Sequence record: OP870144.1
DNA: 64,000 nt
Origin: Escherichia phage vB_Eco_F25
Direction: 5' to 3' (one strand)
The notes under the pieces were generated by a model, which did not search any database, was not told the DNA's origin, and saw only the letters and a program-made list of their open reading frames with translations. Shown in pieces: positions 4,926-59,193 of the stretch; within the stretch, counting starts at the first letter, position 1; the number at the start of each line of letters is the position of its first letter. The position numbers and the translations under genes are program-made.

Positions 4926-5297
4926 TCACTCAAATTTAATGGCTTGAAGGAGACTAATAATTCTCAAGCGACTTCTTTCATCTTTAACTGTAAAAGAAAG
5001 AGGGTCACCAGATTTCATAGTGATAGTGCATTCAAAATCAAAATCTTCTGTAACTTCTTCGAAGAAGTCAAATTCTTCATCATAAATTAGAACATTACTC
5101 TGAAAACTATGAAGAATTTTTCCATCATTTCCAGATGCTGTACTAATCATTGTAACATTATGGCCTTTCATATCTTCAACGATAAATTCGCTTGTAGATA
5201 TTACAGTATTAATAGAACTATTCCTATAAATAGAAGAAAGTAGATATTTCTTTTCTTCACCTTCGCGAACACGATATTTCTTACCGATTTTAAACAT
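4926..5297 (-). CDS. Hypothetical protein
   Basis: ORF with ATG at 5295-5297 (track start at 5303 is GTG). Confidence 0.45.
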   Translation of the reverse strand: MFKIGKKYRVREGEEKKYLLSSIYRNSSINTVISTSEFIVEDMKGHNVTMISTASGNDGKILHSFQSNVLIYDEEFDFFEEVTEDFDFECTITMKSGDPLSFTVKDERSRLRIISLLQAIKFE

Positions 5298-5299
5298 AA

Positions 5300-5476
5300 T
5301 CACCCTTTAAGTAAGTCGTAAAATCCACCATTCACATGCTTAGGAGCAGAAGGCCGACGAGTAGACAAACGATGACATTTAGGGCAAACATCATTTTCTC
5401 GTTCAGAAATCTTTTTAATTTTTTCATATTCATGCCCACAATCTTCGGATTGGCATTTATAATCATACATTGGCAT
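5300..5476 (-). CDS. FmdB-family zinc-ribbon protein (58 aa), below the ORF-track size cut-off
   Basis: Translated by hand: MPMYDYKCQSEDCGHEYEKIKKISERENDVCPKCHRLSTRRPSAPKHVNGGFYDLLKG; CxxC...CxxC zinc ribbon. Confidence 0.6.
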   Translation of the reverse strand: MPMYDYKCQSEDCGHEYEKIKKISERENDVCPKCHRLSTRRPSAPKHVNGGFYDLLKG

Positions 5477-11852: not shown

Positions 11853-12455
11853 TTATAGATTAAATCCTTCAAAATCAAGAGTATAGATAGTGTATGTTGA
11901 ATACTTTTTATACTCATATCTATCCGCAATTCTAAATACACTTCCAGCTGGTATCATTACTTCTTGTTCATCTGAAACTAATTCCATATTACGATAGCGA
12001 TGGCTATCCGGAAACTTAAAACTTGGACTGTATTCTTTACAGCGTAGAGCTTTTATAGCATACTCCTGGAAATTAAATACCATAGGAGCTTTGAATTCAA
12101 AAATAACTTGTGTGTTGTATTCTAATCCAGAAGCAAAATGTAGAGCTATATTTTTATCATATGAAGCTGATACTACTTTATCAAATGTAATAATATCAAT
12201 TCCTTGATTTAACACTTGCTTAGTCTCAACTGGAACACCTCTCCAAAGAGGTTTATCGTTTGGTTCCAAACGAGATTTGATTATTTCATTTAACCAAGAG
12301 TGGTCGTCTGGCTTATTAGTAATACAATGAATTAAAAGTTCAATTTCGGATAAATTAAATCCTTCAGAAAGTAATTCTTCACGAATAGAAGCACGCACCG
12401 ATGCATCCATTGATTTGATTTTAAAATCTTTTAATTGCATTGCTGAATATTTCAT
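11853..12455 (-). CDS. modA: ADP-ribosyltransferase ModA
   Basis: 200 aa (same as T4 ModA); order srd-modA-modB; paralogous to the next gene. Confidence 0.75.
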   Translation of the reverse strand: MKYSAMQLKDFKIKSMDASVRASIREELLSEGFNLSEIELLIHCITNKPDDHSWLNEIIKSRLEPNDKPLWRGVPVETKQVLNQGIDIITFDKVVSASYDKNIALHFASGLEYNTQVIFEFKAPMVFNFQEYAIKALRCKEYSPSFKFPDSHRYRNMELVSDEQEVMIPAGSVFRIADRYEYKKYSTYTIYTLDFEGFNL

Positions 12456-13087
12456 TCAACTACCTCAATATCATACACTTTAAATGTTCCAAATGAATCG
12501 TGTAATTTTTCTTTTGAAATAGAAGTTATTTTATACTTTCCAATTGGAATCATCCATTCTTGTTCACGCACAATCATCATTAAGTTATCAGTACGTTCTG
12601 AATCTAATCCATCAGTATCTTCATATGTATACTTAAACTCAGTATTAGGAGAAGAAAGTATAATATCGCTGATATGGTCAGAGTAATTAAAAGCTTTATC
12701 AGTTTTTAAGCGAAGTACTATTTCAGTGAAATATTCAGCATAAGAAAAAGAACACGCTGTATGCAAACTAGTAGTAAATGAATCTACTCTGTTCGTTGAA
12801 AACACTTCTCCAACTTGTAAATCTTTAATGAGTTCTTTTGTCGATTTTGATATACCACGATATAGCTGATAAGGCGATTTAGTTAAATGCTTTTTAATGA
12901 TTTTATTCAACTGCCGATGAAGAGCTTCATTCTTTTTGGCTTCCATACATTGCCAAAGAACTGACTGTTCAAAGTCAGTAAATTTTTCACAGACCTTTTT
13001 ATACATATCATATTGAAAATCAACACTTTCAGCTTTTATAGATAACTGTTCAACATCTGCAAGATTAATAATCATGATAGCCTCCAT
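12452..13087 (-). CDS. modB: ADP-ribosyltransferase ModB
   Basis: 211 aa, overlapping the modA start; T4 ModB is about 207 aa. Confidence 0.7.
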   Translation of the reverse strand: MEAIMIINLADVEQLSIKAESVDFQYDMYKKVCEKFTDFEQSVLWQCMEAKKNEALHRQLNKIIKKHLTKSPYQLYRGISKSTKELIKDLQVGEVFSTNRVDSFTTSLHTACSFSYAEYFTEIVLRLKTDKAFNYSDHISDIILSSPNTEFKYTYEDTDGLDSERTDNLMMIVREQEWMIPIGKYKITSISKEKLHDSFGTFKVYDIEVVE

Positions 13088-17586: not shown

Positions 17587-18213
17587 TTAACCTCTATTCA
17601 TAAAAGCATTAAAAATTTGGTCATCAATAGAAACTTTTACTTTAAACTGTTTTTCCGATGGTAATTCATATCCGCATATTACAATTTTGTGATCAATATC
17701 AAAATACACAGAAGCAATATGATTAATGATGTTTTCAGTAAAGTCTAAATCAACATCAATATCTTTTTGACCACAACCCAAAGGATAAATAATGCGAGTA
17801 ATTCGATTATCTTTAACAAAGATTCCACCAATATACTCTGTGCTGCGTTTAAAGTCTACGCGCCGCCGAAATGAAAAATATTCAGGCTCTTTATGAGCTC
17901 GGCTCATAGGACACAACGAGTAACTAGAGTAAGAGATGTCAAATCCTACGCCTTCGATATGAGCCAAAGTGTCACGATTAAACCAATTATAATCGTACGC
18001 CAAGTCCATTAGATTATAATATGTAAAAGGCACCGGATTAACATCACTAGTCACAAGCACGTAATTAGCAACTGCTATAATTTCATTATTTTTAACAAAT
18101 ACAAATCTTGATTGATGCGAATGACCTGGACCTGCGTTTTCACGATTAATGATATAACACTGGGCACCTTTATATTTGTACGTGTCTTTGCACTTGTGCA
18201 TTTGATAAAGCAT
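17587..18213 (-). CDS. 61.2: 61.2-like protein (position of anti-DarT factor AdfA in RB69)
   Basis: 208 aa in the 61.1-61.2-sp order; identity by synteny and size only. Confidence 0.45.
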   Translation of the reverse strand: MLYQMHKCKDTYKYKGAQCYIINRENAGPGHSHQSRFVFVKNNEIIAVANYVLVTSDVNPVPFTYYNLMDLAYDYNWFNRDTLAHIEGVGFDISYSSYSLCPMSRAHKEPEYFSFRRRVDFKRSTEYIGGIFVKDNRITRIIYPLGCGQKDIDVDLDFTENIINHIASVYFDIDHKIVICGYELPSEKQFKVKVSIDDQIFNAFMNRG

Positions 18214-54520: not shown

Positions 54521-55087
54521 TCACTTTGAAATCATAGTTGGAATGACAGAATCAAGATAAGTCTTTAGCGCAATAGCTTCGTCTTTTGTAAATGTAACAA
54601 TATGTGCTCGAAAATCGTCAATTTGGCGAATAGTTAAGACATCTCCTTCTTCATAACATTTTGATACATTTAAAACAGTTTCATCATTCTGATCGCACTG
54701 ATCGCAAGCGTTAGTAATAATAGCATTGCAATTTTTGAGCCATTTTAAACTATGTTTTCTTTCATTAGAATAATAAAAATATTTAATCTTAGCTATAAAA
54801 CTATCCCAATGGATAACTGATAAACACATTGACTCACTTTTAATATTAAATCCTGGGCATGAAGAATAAAAATGAATTTTGTGCTCATCATTGATGCTTA
54901 CTATTTTATCAGTATAAGGATATTCAATTTGGATTAAATGAACGATTTCACTAGGCGTAAAATATAGCATATCGTCTTCTTGCGTCAAACGATACATGTT
55001 ATTTACTTTTTCTATAGCCAATTCACCAAAAAGCGGACTAACTTCTAATACTAATCGTTTCATATTGATTCTCTTCGACTCACTCAC
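54521..55087 (-). CDS. Hypothetical protein
   Basis: 188-aa ORF; possible start at an internal Met. Confidence 0.45.
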   Translation of the reverse strand: MSESKRINMKRLVLEVSPLFGELAIEKVNNMYRLTQEDDMLYFTPSEIVHLIQIEYPYTDKIVSINDEHKIHFYSSCPGFNIKSESMCLSVIHWDSFIAKIKYFYYSNERKHSLKWLKNCNAIITNACDQCDQNDETVLNVSKCYEEGDVLTIRQIDDFRAHIVTFTKDEAIALKTYLDSVIPTMISK

Positions 55088-55254
55088 AATTACATACTCC
55101 TTTGAATAATATCAATAATGTTGTTCACCAGATTATAAGTAAACATTGGGTAATTATATTGAATCATCACATACACAATAAACAAAAATTTCATTCTCTT
55201 CTCCTTGGCAGTTGACAAGGTTATGGTATAGTAATCTTGTCAACTTGTAAACCA

Positions 55255-55428
55255 TTAAATGACGTTTTCAATAAAATTCTGAAGCTTTGTGTGAGCATCA
55301 ACCATGATTTTCATTTCTTCTTTGGCAAAAGCTGTGCCTCTTTCACGAGAAGAACATTCATAGTCAGAAACTGCATTAGCATATTCTTCAATTAGTTTCA
55401 TTAAAAACATCTGCTTTTCAGTTTTCAT
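55255..55428 (-). CDS. Hypothetical small protein (57 aa)
   Basis: Hand-translated MKTEKQMFLMKLIEEYANAVSDYECSSRERGTAFAKEEMKIMVDAHTKLQNFIENVI; below ORF-track cut-off. Confidence 0.35.
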   Translation of the reverse strand: MKTEKQMFLMKLIEEYANAVSDYECSSRERGTAFAKEEMKIMVDAHTKLQNFIENVI

Positions 55429-55612
55429 TATTCCACCTAATCATTTCAAGATATTGAACTAACTTAGCTTTAGATTTATCCAAATCTCTTTTAGCTGCTT
55501 CTATACCGTCGTATGAATATCCTTCACAATGCTCAACTGCTAATTGATATGAATCTATTTCAATATCACGTGCTAATTTAATGATTTTTTCAAACTGTTC
55601 GTGTGTTAACAT
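55418..55612 (-). CDS. Hypothetical protein
   Basis: 64-aa ORF. Confidence 0.45.
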   Translation of the reverse strand: MLTHEQFEKIIKLARDIEIDSYQLAVEHCEGYSYDGIEAAKRDLDKSKAKLVQYLEMIRWNNEN

Positions 55613-55614
55613 AA

Positions 55615-55854
55615 TTAAACTCTCGTATTATGATCGATAATTTCATCAAGAAACATATCTAACGCTTCTATAGCATTATCAACTTTAGCTTCAAAGTCTT
55701 TAATGCCTTTATTCGAAATACCCGATGAATACCAAGCAAAGTCAATCAGCTCTTCATCTGCTTTACGAATTGAAGCCACTAATTCCTTGATTTTATCTGC
55801 TTGCTCTATACTAATCATTATTCCACCACATATGACAGAGAGAATATTGCACAC
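55615..55854 (-). CDS. Hypothetical protein
   Basis: 79-aa ORF. Confidence 0.45.
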
Positions 55855-56006
55855 GCCATGTGAGTTGCAACTTCATCACACATATTATAACGTTTCTTAA
55901 GAAGTTCTACAAGTTCTTCACTAGTAACTTCATCCATGTCGACGAAAAAATCACCATTAATGATGACGTAGATATTTCCTTCTTGATTGAGTGCTTCAAT
56001 TTTCAT
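55818..56006 (-). CDS. Hypothetical protein
   Basis: ATG at 56004-56006 ([10 protein letters not shown]...); the track start lies inside the promoter. Confidence 0.4.
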
Positions 56007-56034
56007 GATGTTCTCCTCTTTATCCGATAGTTGT

Positions 56035-56064
56035 ATAGTATCACAGCTCAAATGGAAAGTAAAC
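56035..56064 (-). promoter_or_regulatory. T4-type early promoter (-10 TACTAT)
   Basis: GTTTAC(56064-56059), 18-nt spacer, TACTAT(56040-56035). Confidence 0.5.
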
Positions 56065-56074
56065 CGGTAAAATG

Positions 56075-56097
56075 AAAAAAGTCTCCCGAAGGAGACT
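56075..56097 (-). terminator. Rho-independent terminator (UUCG tetraloop + U-run)
   Basis: Minus-strand AGUCUCC-UUCG-GGAGACU followed by UUUUUU. Confidence 0.65.
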
Positions 56098-56101
56098 AAT
56101 G

Positions 56102-56488
56102 TTATTCGAGGGAAAGAAGATACTTACTCTGGTAAAACATCCCAGTAATATCATCTATCGTGCTTTGAATGGCTGGAGGCATTTCTTTATAAATGCTGTT
56201 AGATTGGTCTAGTATGCGATCAATCATTTTAATTGTGTCGGTAGGAAGTTTACTGGCATCTGGAATTGAAGGCGTGTATTTTCTACCAGAATACCCCAAA
56301 TATTGCTCACCAAATTTATCAATCAAATCTGGCAATTCGGAGAAAATAAAATCGTATGCTTTGTGTCTAGCATAACTTTTAGTTTCAAAATGTGCAGAAT
56401 GAAAATAAGCTTGTGCAGCCATTAATAAACCTAAGTATTCATCTGCCTTTGAAGGTTTTCCACTTTGTGAAAAGTCGCTGAATTTCAT
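56102..56488 (-). CDS. rI.-1: rI.-1-like protein
   Basis: 128 aa immediately downstream of rI. Confidence 0.55.
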
Positions 56489-56778
56489 TCAGTCTCCAAT
56501 TTAATGTTCATAATTCTAGCGTATGATTGTGCCATCTCCGCGCCTCGTTCTATACATTCAAAATCAGAAGAGCACGGGTCATTTTTATAGGTCGTTCTCA
56601 TAAAACTATAGAACTGTTCAGATGATTCTACGCTTTTATTTTCAAAAAGCATATAAACATGTCTAATACCAGATTCCATAAATTTATCAAAATGAGGATC
56701 GACATTCGCTTCAATTGGTAGAGATAAAGCAAATGACAATCCTAGCATGGCAAATAGTGCCGTTGCTTTTAAGGCCAT
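56485..56778 (-). CDS. rI: Lysis inhibition regulator rI (antiholin partner)
   Basis: 97 aa; MALKATALFAMLGLSFALS...NVDPHFDKFMESGIRHVYMLFENKSVESSEQFYSFMRTTYKNDPCSSDFECIERG matches T4 rI. Confidence 0.92.
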   Translation of the reverse strand: MALKATALFAMLGLSFALSLPIEANVDPHFDKFMESGIRHVYMLFENKSVESSEQFYSFMRTTYKNDPCSSDFECIERGAEMAQSYARIMNIKLETE

Positions 56779-56787
56779 AAAGGCCTC

Positions 56788-57003
56788 CTACCATTTTTGT
56801 CCTGTATTTACTTTATGCCGATGCACGGCCTTAACTTTATCAAGGTATTTTTCAAAATTTCGCAATCTAGTATAGTCTGCCGGAGATTGGTTGAGTGATA
56901 CTTCTCGACGCAAAGCTGAAATGATATTTCCAACTTCCCTACGAATTTCATCTAATTGAAGCACAGTAAGATTGCGAAGTTGCTTTTCAGTTAATTGTAG
57001 CAT
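56788..57003 (-). CDS. rI.1: rI.1-like protein
   Basis: 71-aa ORF between rI and tk. Confidence 0.5.
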
Positions 57004-57636: not shown

Positions 57637-57822
57637 TTAAAGCGTATTCACATAAGCTATTAATTCATTTTCTTTCTTATCAAACCGATCAGCAAATTCT
57701 TCCTGCTGTTCTGGAGATAGCGGGCCGTATTCATCATAAAAGGTGTTTGCTTCTATATGCTCATCTAGAAGTTCATGGATAAGCTCAAACAATTTATCTT
57801 TTTGTTCTTTACTCAGACTCAT
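57637..57822 (-). CDS. Hypothetical protein (tk.1 position)
   Basis: 61-aa acidic ORF. Confidence 0.45.
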   Translation of the reverse strand: MSLSKEQKDKLFELIHELLDEHIEANTFYDEYGPLSPEQQEEFADRFDKKENELIAYVNTL

Positions 57823-57992
57823 ATATTAATTTCCAGGAGTTTTAAAATAATTCGCTTTTGCTTAAATATTTCCATAGTTAAATGACCAGTATCTTTTTGA
57901 CCAATTCCAATGGCAAAACCTTTATTAACAGCGAGTTCAATTAAATTATCAAGCTCACGTAACACTTCGTATTGTAACTCAAAACTATTCAT
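57819..57992 (-). CDS. Hypothetical small protein (57 aa)
   Basis: Hand-translated ORF coupled to neighbours by overlapping ATGA at both ends; below ORF-track cut-off. Confidence 0.35.
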   Translation of the reverse strand: MNSFELQYEVLRELDNLIELAVNKGFAIGIGQKDTGHLTMEIFKQKRIILKLLEINI

Positions 57993-58216
57993 TTTGGTTT
58001 ACCTTCTTTAACGAAATCAGGATAAGGATAAAATCCTGAATAAAATCCTTCACCTTTATGATTGATGCATCCTTTATTAGAACAATAGCACCAATAATCG
58101 AAATCACAAGTCATTTCATCATTACATAAAGCAAAAACAACCGGCCACTTACACTTTTCACAATGGGCATTTTTAAGAATACTAGTTTGGCTCATAACCA
58201 TGTAACCTTTAAGCAA
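57989..58216 (-). CDS. Hypothetical Cys-rich protein
   Basis: 75 aa with many Cys/His (CEKCKW...CYCSNKGCINH). Confidence 0.45.
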   Translation of the reverse strand: MLKGYMVMSQTSILKNAHCEKCKWPVVFALCNDEMTCDFDYWCYCSNKGCINHKGEGFYSGFYPYPDFVKEGKPK

Positions 58217-58404
58217 TATTCTTCTACATGTTGTTTACGACCTTTCTTATCAATAAAGGTATATTCAACGAATGTTCCAATGTAGTCTTTATCTACATCA
58301 TGTGGACTATTAATTGGACATTTAGTACGGCAAATGCGTTCCCATTGACGAATAATTTCCACTTTATTTTTAGGGTCAAATGGATGCGGGTAATGTACTT
58401 TCAT
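58192..58404 (-). CDS. Hypothetical protein
   Basis: 70-aa ORF. Confidence 0.45.
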   Translation of the reverse strand: MKVHYPHPFDPKNKVEIIRQWERICRTKCPINSPHDVDKDYIGTFVEYTFIDKKGRKQHVEEYCLKVTWL

Positions 58405-58855
58405 AATCCACCACTATTAAATCAATATCAGGAGTAAACATGTCGATTAATTTAGAAACCTTATCCCAATCACCGCCAGCAATACCACAACCTATACGTG
58501 GAATGTAAATTACCGGTTTAAACAAAAGGGTTTCTGCCTGTAGATTTAATTCTATCATGCAGTTTACTAAAGCACCATAATCAAGATTAGGACCTGGTTC
58601 GTATTGCGTATACAAGTTATAACATATGCCAAAACCATTAGGTTTATGTTTAAAAACAATAGACATATCGCCTAATTTATCACGAGAACCGTACTCAGTT
58701 GTGGTCTTATCTATTTCTAAAATTTTGGGGTAGGCTCTTGCTAATTGACCCGCTACACCTGAACCCATAGTATGAAAACAGTTACACCCGTGCGCAATAA
58801 TATTACCTTCAAGAAAGAGGGCGACAATATCGCCCTTGATATATTTTACAATCAT
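58376..58855 (-). CDS. Macrodomain protein (TARG1/OARD1/DarG-like ADP-ribose hydrolase family)
   Basis: 159 aa; KGDIV...AHGCNCFHTMGSGVAGQLA and ...IPRIGCGIAGGDWDKV motifs match the TARG1-type macrodomain pattern. Confidence 0.65.
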   Translation of the reverse strand: MIVKYIKGDIVALFLEGNIIAHGCNCFHTMGSGVAGQLARAYPKILEIDKTTTEYGSRDKLGDMSIVFKHKPNGFGICYNLYTQYEPGPNLDYGALVNCMIELNLQAETLLFKPVIYIPRIGCGIAGGDWDKVSKLIDMFTPDIDLIVVDYESTLPASI

Positions 58856-59193
58856 CTAGTACTCAATCCTCGATTATAAGAATCTACCAAACGGTCAACC
58901 ATTGAATGACAAGCGGCTTTATCTTTCTCCTCCGCAACTGAACATTCTAAGGTATTCCACTTTTTAGCATATCGTTTTAACAATGTATCATTTTTGTATC
59001 TGCTTGATTTATCTCTTTCTCCGTCTTTATATGCATATATTAATTTCTGCGCAAATTCAGCTTGGCATGCTTTATTTTTCCCGCAATAATCCGCGGCAGT
59101 ACGGTTTACATACTCTCTAATTTCAGTATATGATGTATTTGCTAACGCAGAAAATGAAATTAATCCTATACATAAAACCAAAATTTTAGTCAT
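58852..59193 (-). CDS. Hypothetical secreted protein
   Basis: 113 aa; N-terminal signal peptide MTKILVLCIGLISFSALA; four Cys. Confidence 0.5.
   Translation of the reverse strand: MTKILVLCIGLISFSALANTSYTEIREYVNRTAADYCGKNKACQAEFAQKLIYAYKDGERDKSSRYKNDTLLKRYAKKWNTLECSVAEEKDKAACHSMVDRLVDSYNRGLSTR

Follow-up and report, generated by a model that had tools for sequence, protein, structure and literature searches.

A divergent tk.4 (adfM) macrodomain gene of Escherichia phage vB_Eco_F25 as a probable eraser of DarT2-made DNA ADP-ribosylation

Results

The tk.4 gene and its position

We analysed a stretch of 64,000 nucleotides of Escherichia phage vB_Eco_F25 (sequence record OP870144.1; the whole stretch is called the window below), in which a first-pass annotation made from the sequence had pointed to a gene for a TARG1/DarG-type macrodomain protein. 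The gene lies in the slot of T4 tk.4, recently renamed adfM, and is this phage's allele of that gene. Its product is a stand-alone macrodomain of an "orphan antitoxin-like" kind, expressed early, and we consider it probable that it hydrolyses the thymidine ADP-ribose made by the host toxin DarT2, in the manner of the Streptomyces coelicolor protein SCO6735. The open reading frame (ORF) indeed runs from 58376 to 58855, and its translation of 159 amino acids holds the segments that the annotation had quoted (KGDIV...AHGCNCFHTMGSGVAGQLA and IPRIGCGIAGGDWDKV). The gene and its two boundaries are as follows:

58376..58855, minus strand: tk.4/adfM ortholog, single-domain macrodomain protein of 159 amino acids
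58852..58855, minus strand: ATGA overlap of the vs stop codon with the tk.4 start codon (translational coupling), from the ORF coordinates and the sequence
58376..58404, minus strand: 29-nt overlap of the tk.4 3' end with the start of tk.3, from the ORF list; the same annotation is present in phage Bas39

The window belongs to a Tequatrovirus, and hundreds of T4-like phages match the 3.3-kb stretch around tk.4 with about 98% identity. As in the T4 record, tk.4 is located between tk.3 and vs, followed by vs.1 and regB, within a compact co-directional string of early genes (regB-vs.1-vs-tk.4-tk.3), and the 60 nt upstream of tk.4 show no difference from T4. A family profile search found this one macrodomain only in the 64-kb window.

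Fold and class of the protein

The protein matched the Pfam family Macro (PF01661) with E=6e-8 and 33.1 bits, above the gathering cut-off of 22 and over positions 2-117 of the 118 in the profile, and PHROG 335 with E=2e-71, and 2774 phage records carried homologues of the Tk.4 family in a tblastn search. The AlphaFold2 model, for which an alignment of 63 sequences was the input, had a mean predicted local distance difference test score of 93.4 and a predicted template modelling score of 0.88, and displayed the three-layer alpha/beta/alpha fold with two Gly-rich ADP-ribose-binding loops. The structure neighbours were BT1257, M. tuberculosis DarG, yeast Poa1p, T. africanus DarTG and human TARG1 (18.3, 17.7, 17.2, 16.9 and 16.8, respectively; these figures carry no label), with a clear gap before other macrodomain classes, and the best Foldseek match was human TARG1 (4J5R/4J5S; E=3e-10, template modelling score 0.72-0.82). 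Among solved structures, the sequence matches ranked BT1257 (2e-10), SCO6735 (9e-8), M. tuberculosis DarG (1e-5) and TARG1 (9e-3). Therefore, the nearest neighbours in structure and in sequence belong to the TARG1/DarG/Poa1p ("ALC1-like") class and not to the MacroD, viral or PARG classes, and the type proposed in the first-pass annotation was borne out.

DarG was the sole PADLOC match of the protein (spanning positions 3-144 of 329) and its best NCBIfam match. However, the NCBIfam DarG equivalog model reached just 27.8 bits against a cut-off of 250 bits (positions 2-142 of a 338-position model) and the NCBIfam models for YmdB-type O-acetyl-ADP-ribose deacetylases were insignificant, and therefore we filed the gene as neither.

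Residues of the active site

Conservation was examined in 63 family members, down to 39% identity. The sequences of M. tuberculosis DarG, T. aquaticus DarG, TARG1 and SCO6735 were recovered from PDB alignments and aligned with the window and T4 proteins using MAFFT and HMMER. The elements of the site are located as follows:

58751..58792, minus strand: codons 22-35 (HGCNCFHTMGSGVA), the first of the two loops that bind ADP-ribose, containing His22 and Asn25
58604..58606, minus strand: codon 84 (CAA), a Gln where TARG1 (K84) and DarG (K80) have the catalytic Lys
58466..58501, minus strand: codons 119-130 (PRIGCGIAGGDW), phosphate-binding loop

The invariant residues of the first loop are H22, G23, N25, C26, G33 and A35. 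Of these, H22 and N25 have their counterparts in His24 and Asn27 of SCO6735, of which Asn27 has been described as important (PMC9411070), and N25 aligns also with Asn22 of DarG. P119, G122, G124 and W130 of the phosphate-binding loop are invariant, A126, G127 and G128 are conserved in at least 90% of the members, and Gly124 aligns with Gly128 of SCO6735. The first-pass annotation had proposed a search for equivalents of TARG1 Lys84 and Asp125, and neither is present: the position of TARG1 Lys84, of Lys80 in both DarG proteins and of Lys78 in the PhiKZ-type protein is taken by Gln84, which is invariant in the 63 homologues, and that of TARG1 Asp125 by Ala126 (GCGIA vs GCGLD). Instead, the residues are those of SCO6735 (Q84/Q85, N25/N27, H22/H24 and G124/G128 aligned). 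SCO6735 has no catalytic lysine, yet it frees DNA of ADP-ribose linked to thymidine, and its authors call the turnover high compared with TARG1 and DarG; its Q85A/E mutations abolish the hydrolysis of ADP-ribosylated thymidine in DNA (dT-ADPr-DNA), and the wild type protects cells from DarT (PMC9411070). The activity has been confirmed (PMC12879935).

Because Gln84 is invariant and matches SCO6735, the loss of the Lys and Asp residues would not mean that the enzyme is inactive. Within the TARG1/DarG class, the Tk.4 family is therefore best placed with the SCO6735 type (Gln) and not with the DarG type (Lys), and the chemistry of AdfM should be modelled on SCO6735. The Gln-type active site of T4-type AdfM goes beyond the cited papers, which compare AdfM with DarG only. 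SCO6735 (5E3B) was missing from the top 50 Foldseek matches, and the mapping of its residues therefore rests on the sequence alignments. One of these was made with a chimeric query, in which the C-terminal 30 residues were SCO6735's own so that the chain would be displayed; for residues 1-112 the mapping involves the phage sequence only and was reproduced by MAFFT.

A divergent allele between near-identical flanks

The protein is 58% identical to T4 Tk.4 over 155 amino acids with no gaps (E=5e-70), whereas the proteins of the surrounding genes are close to those of T4 (Tk 99.5%, Tk.3 93%, Vs 96.5%, Vs.1 99.4% and RegB 98.7% identical). The sliding DNA identity to T4, computed on a MAFFT alignment, ranges from 92 to 100% in vs and tk.3 on either side. 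Before the start codon of tk.4 it is 100%, over the opening 130 nt of the gene it is 82-90%, and it returns to 95-100% in tk.3 after the following segment:

58380..58726, minus strand: divergent allele cassette, DNA identity to T4 38-72%

By protein segment, residues 1-45 are 87% and residues 132-155 are 21% identical to T4. The window sequence is carried at at least 95% identity by 271 GenBank phage records. Each of the two alleles is common: 318 phage records reach at least 90% identity with the window type and 224 do so with the T4 type, while another 159 are 80-90% identical to T4. The phosphate loop of the window allele (GCGIAGG) is the family consensus, while that of T4 is GAGIGKG, and therefore nothing points to a loss of function in the window allele.

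DarTG2 resistance and the T4 ortholog

In a November 2025 preprint, Humolli et al. found tk.4 as the single significant HIDEN-SEQ hit of a T4 transposon library on a DarTG2 host; tk.4 insertions were tolerated on E. coli K-12 and depleted specifically with DarTG2, a clean tk.4 knockout sensitised T4 to DarTG2, and the gene was renamed adfM (anti-DarT factor Macrodomain) (10.1101/2025.11.20.689424). Previously, Johannesman et al. had observed that T4 without adfA (61.2) and adfN (30.3) stayed DarTG2-resistant and concluded that T-even phages must therefore have a further factor (PMC11257639). The suggestion of the first-pass annotation that the protein could reverse host DarT-type DNA ADP-ribosylation agrees with these genetics, and by analogy with T4 it probably holds for the window allele.

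The distribution of the gene is in line with the genetics. The allele of the near-identical phage Bas39 (FriedrichMiescher) is 98% identical to that of the window, and the Tevenvirinae panel that includes Bas39 was described as "all DarTG2 resistant" (PMC11257639). T5 has been used as a DarTG2-sensitive phage (10.1101/2025.11.20.689424; PMC11257639), and a six-frame profile search of the whole T5 genome gave no macrodomain (best 8 bits, E=0.12, vs 227 bits in the window). The resistance of Bas39 and the sensitivity of T5 are correlations only.

Other genes and features of the window

The first-pass annotation had placed the macrodomain gene alongside modA/modB and a gene at the 61.2 position. 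These genes were identified as proposed and are present in the same window, but they lie 40-46 kb from the macrodomain gene:

11853-12455, minus strand: modA, 97% identical to T4 ModA
12452-13087, minus strand: modB, 96% (95.7%) identical to T4 ModB
17587..18213, minus strand: 61.2/adfA ortholog, a separate anti-DarT1 factor, 94.7% identical to T4 gp61.2, Pfam AdfA PF23813 with E=2e-133

ModB has 211 amino acids here and 207 in T4, and no Pfam model matched ModA or ModB at E<=0.01. From about residue 150 to residue 189, the AdfA ortholog does not differ from T4 AdfA, and this part includes the His/Arg site (RB69 position 164) that is reported to decide DarT1 neutralisation. We found no evidence of a functional or physical link of modA/modB and adfA to tk.4, and they are context only.

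A promoter scan of 56.4-62.5 kb gave 22 promoter-like sites against 24.5 expected and thus no signal; the sole notable site was consensus-like and lay upstream of regB (60256-60228). Within codons 7-13 of tk.4, a perfect 8-bp inverted repeat (AGGGCGAT ATT GTCGCCCT... stem, 58818-58836) was flagged on both strands by a terminator scan (as a "terminator" at 58817-58837); it is the same in T4, falls in the part that is near-identical between the alleles and could be chance or mRNA structure. The vs gene (58852-59193) encodes the valyl-tRNA synthetase modifier and was the T4 gene depleted most strongly in minimal medium by HIDEN-SEQ, a new phenotype for an old gene (10.1101/2025.11.20.689424).

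On the other side of tk.4, the block of small genes between tk and tk.3 (57637-58216) is unlike T4. The tk-adjacent ORF at 57637-57822 looks like T4 tk.2 and not tk.1 when the printed sequences are compared by eye, and it is followed by an ORF of 57 amino acids (PHROG 3452) and a Cys-rich ORF of 75 amino acids matching Pfam Phage_zn_bind PF23895 (E=3e-29); the DNA identity to T4 in 58100-58180 is just 22-38%. Moreover, tk.4 is about 2.5 kb nearer to the window start than it would be by T4 coordinates (window about 55000-57000 vs T4 56.4-59.7 kb), which is consistent with part of the T4 mobD-rI block being absent or replaced.

Discussion

Proposed function

The fold, the class, the positional orthology and the conservation of the active-site residues were observed here, and we rely on the literature for the phenotype of the T4 ortholog on DarTG2 and for what SCO6735 catalyses. 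From these we infer, by analogy, that the 58%-identical window allele does the same as T4 AdfM, and does so by hydrolysis. In the proposed course, infection would free the host DarT2, which would ADP-ribosylate thymidines of TNTC motifs in single-stranded phage DNA and block replication; the phage macrodomain would then hold the ADP-ribose with its two glycine-rich loops and hydrolyse the bond between thymidine N3 and the ribose, which would restore replicable DNA. The chemistry would most likely be that of SCO6735 and not that of DarG or TARG1, with the invariant Gln84, held by Asn25, positioning the substrate and an activated water.

Several points weigh against this proposal. The catalytic Lys of DarG and TARG1 and the Asp of TARG1 are missing, and the DNA-binding lysines of SCO6735 are not kept either, as K34 corresponds to Ser32 and K89 belongs to an insertion of 5 residues missing here. 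The isoelectric point (pI) of the protein is 5.1 (acidic) compared with 9.6 for SCO6735, whose cleft is electropositive, and the phage protein is thus unlike an obvious surface for binding single-stranded DNA. The catalytic His of Poa1p also appears to be conserved, and a small-molecule substrate is thereby possible. The protein with DarTG2 genetics, T4 AdfM, is the one from which the window protein differs at this 58% level of identity; enzymatic removal of ADP-ribose from DNA was proposed for it by Humolli et al. with the wording "seems likely" (10.1101/2025.11.20.689424), and the papers that we found on AdfM and Tk.4 include no biochemical characterisation of a Tk.4-family protein.

Alternative explanations

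The divergence of the allele admits a wider interpretation, in which tk.4/adfM is an allelic battleground with at least three allele classes (T4-type, 80-90% identical to T4, and 58%) swapped as cassettes between near-identical T4-like genomes; the classes would differ in the DarT2 variants or other nucleic-acid ADP-ribosylating toxins that they neutralise, and the specificity of the window allele would be unlike that of T4 AdfM. Such differences could come from allele-specific toxin binding added to lysine-less SCO6735-like hydrolysis, and we regard the interpretation as rather unlikely but worth stating. We judge it unlikely that the protein is an anti-DarT2 factor which mainly binds and blocks the toxin as an antitoxin mimic and does not hydrolyse, with the diversity of the alleles reflecting their matching to DarT2 variants. 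The strongly divergent gene-body cassette between near-identical flanks fits such a binder, AdfA and AdfB are thought to bind toxin, the protein is acidic, as described for the single-stranded-DNA-mimicking, DarT-binding C-terminal domain of DarG, and SCO6735 Q85A, although catalytically dead, remains an inhibitor of DarT in vitro, and a stronger one than DarG K80A or TARG1 K84A (PMC9411070). However, a counterpart of that DarG domain is absent from the protein, and the pocket residues H22, N25, Q84 and both Gly loops are invariant in very divergent homologues, including those of free-living bacteria, with no DarT near the one such bacterial gene inspected; an invariant ADP-ribose pocket speaks for selection on catalysis or ligand binding. 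A toxin of another kind could also be the target: the protein would then reverse another nucleic-acid ADP-ribosylation, on RNA or on another base, made by a different host ADP-ribosyltransferase (ART) toxin, and the DarTG2 phenotype of T4 would not be transferable. The difference of 42% of the residues from T4 AdfM, with a C-terminal third of 21% identity, is in its favour, as are several new RNA/DNA ADP-ribosylation linkages with dedicated erasers that have recently been described. It appears highly improbable, as the active-site residues are identical in both alleles, the window allele is the one nearer the family consensus, and phages with this allele belong to the DarTG2-resistant panel (PMC11257639).

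Hydrolysis of small molecules, by a Poa1p-like ADP-ribose-1''-phosphate phosphatase or a hydrolase of other ADP-ribose derivatives (e.g. an O-acetyl-ADP-ribose deacetylase) that clears NAD-derived metabolites, is suggested by database names, since PHROG 335 is labelled "phosphatase" and GenBank labels include "phosphatase", "Poa1p-like" and "O-acetyl-ADP-ribose deacetylase"; a 2006 paper had already pointed out that tk.4 encodes an A1pp/macro domain (PMC1524935). His23 and Ser30 of Poa1p, which carry the mutations of its deposited structures, correspond approximately to His22 and Thr29, with a chain numbering offset of 3 assumed and a match that spans residues 3-79 only. That match is thus confined to the N-terminal half, and the labels are domain-name transfers and not tests. 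To our knowledge, T4 RNA repair (Pnkp/Rnl1) yields no Appr>p or Appr1p, which counts against such a role, and the sole known phenotype of the T4 family member is its DarTG2-specific conditional essentiality (10.1101/2025.11.20.689424); we hold this explanation to be quite improbable. The first-pass annotation had also offered that the protein might temper the phage's own ADP-ribosylation, that is, erase or time the marks made by Alt, ModA or ModB, including the RNAylation by ModB. ModA and ModB are present in the same genome, and ARTs and Macro domains often co-occur in phages (Aravind and colleagues). Nevertheless, this idea found no support: modA/modB are 45 kb away from tk.4 and not co-transcribed with it, and the T4 insertions that K-12 tolerates and DarTG2 selects against speak against it as well. 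The target of Alt, ModA and ModB is arginine; ARH-type enzymes cleave this linkage, whereas TARG1-class macrodomains are not known to do so. Self-regulation of ModA/ModB was accordingly rejected as the main explanation, given the unlinked genes and the unsuitable arginine-linkage chemistry (general knowledge), and an own-mark eraser of any of these kinds seems to us extremely improbable.

Significance

DarTG systems are widespread anti-phage toxin-antitoxin modules, on which T-even phages spend at least three genes (adfA, adfN and adfM), and recognition of an adfM ortholog offers an explanation for the DarTG2 resistance of such phages, which is relevant to host-range prediction in phage therapy. 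Since close copies of the gene are present in those 271 records, the domain has been known since 2006 and the function of the T4 ortholog has been preprinted, the finding of the first-pass annotation is correct but already known. An anti-DarT function is how the T4 ortholog has been interpreted in print, and the remaining interest is modest: the Gln-type site, the enzymology of the family and the cassette-like divergence at an anti-defence locus. In T4-type AdfM, mutation is best aimed at Q84 and N25, and the strongly divergent alleles in near-identical genomes are a natural panel for the specificity of ADP-ribosyl-DNA erasers, which is beyond the cited papers.

Comparison with known systems

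The window protein and T4 Tk.4/AdfM share the slot tk.3-tk.4-vs, the single macrodomain, the length class (159 vs 155 amino acids) and the invariant H22, N25, Q84, G122 and G124, and they differ in an overall identity of 58% while the neighbours are at 93-99%. With the DarG/DarG2 macrodomain (M. tuberculosis 5M3I, T. aquaticus 5M31/5M3E) the protein shares the Asn and, as the genetics of the T4 ortholog would have it, the lesion. However, Lys80 of DarG is Gln84 here, the protein has 159 amino acids compared with about 330-360 and is without the C-terminal DarT-binding domain, and no darT adjoins tk.4, whose neighbours are tk.3 (93%) and vs (96.5%) as in T4. TARG1/OARD1, which also cleaves dT-ADPr DNA (PMC9411070; PMC12879935), has the PRIGCG loop in common with the window protein, but its Lys84/Asp125 dyad is replaced by Gln84 and Ala126 and the identity is about 20-24%.

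The name AdfM has been given both to T4 Tk.4 (Gln-type, bioRxiv 2025) and to PhiKZ gp104 (Lys-type, Cell Rep 2026), which are not orthologous. PhiKZ gp104-type "AdfM" of chimalliviruses is likewise a phage orphan macrodomain countering DarTG2; PhiKZ gp104 takes ADP-ribose off DarT2-modified DNA in vitro and is imported into the phage nucleus (Cell Rep 2026, PMC13309987). It is DarG-like, with Asn23 and Lys78 (FPTKDNWR) where the window protein has Gln, and a PhiKZ gp104 ortholog (392-880 of the stretch examined) gave 23 bits with the window protein in BLASTP. We therefore rejected the placement of the window protein in the PhiKZ family, as the PhiKZ protein is Lys-type and the similarity marginal. 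When the T. aquaticus DarG macrodomain was the tblastn query, 265 phage records were returned, with PhiKZ-like phages, Goslar and phiEco32 among them, and no Tequatrovirus was among the matches listed or in their organism tally. The alignments indicate that the two AdfM groups are separate macrodomain lineages converging on the same defence system. AdfN (T4 gp30.3, NADAR) and AdfA (gp61.2) are T-even counter-defences against DarTG as well, and AdfN is also an orphan antitoxin-like eraser, but their folds are unrelated and they target DarTG1 (guanosine-linked ADP-ribose, or toxin binding) and not DarTG2.

SCO6735 (Streptomyces coelicolor, PDB 5E3B) is likewise a stand-alone macrodomain without a DarT partner, and it shares the Gln at the catalytic-Lys position, the His, Asn and Gly equivalents and a nearly identical loop, PRIGCGIAGGDW in the window and PRIGCGLAGGTW in SCO6735. 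The two proteins differ in overall sequence (about 26% identity), in the K89-bearing insertion after the Gln, in K34 (Ser32 in the phage) and in pI, and SCO6735 is a bacterial housekeeping or stress protein and not a phage counter-defence. A homologue in Pelagimonas phthalicica (5001-5459 of the stretch examined), 40% identical to the window protein, is also stand-alone among housekeeping genes, and there was no DarT beside this bacterial homologue, the one inspected. Its likeness to SCO6735 suggests that Gln-type macrodomains may generally be orphan erasers.

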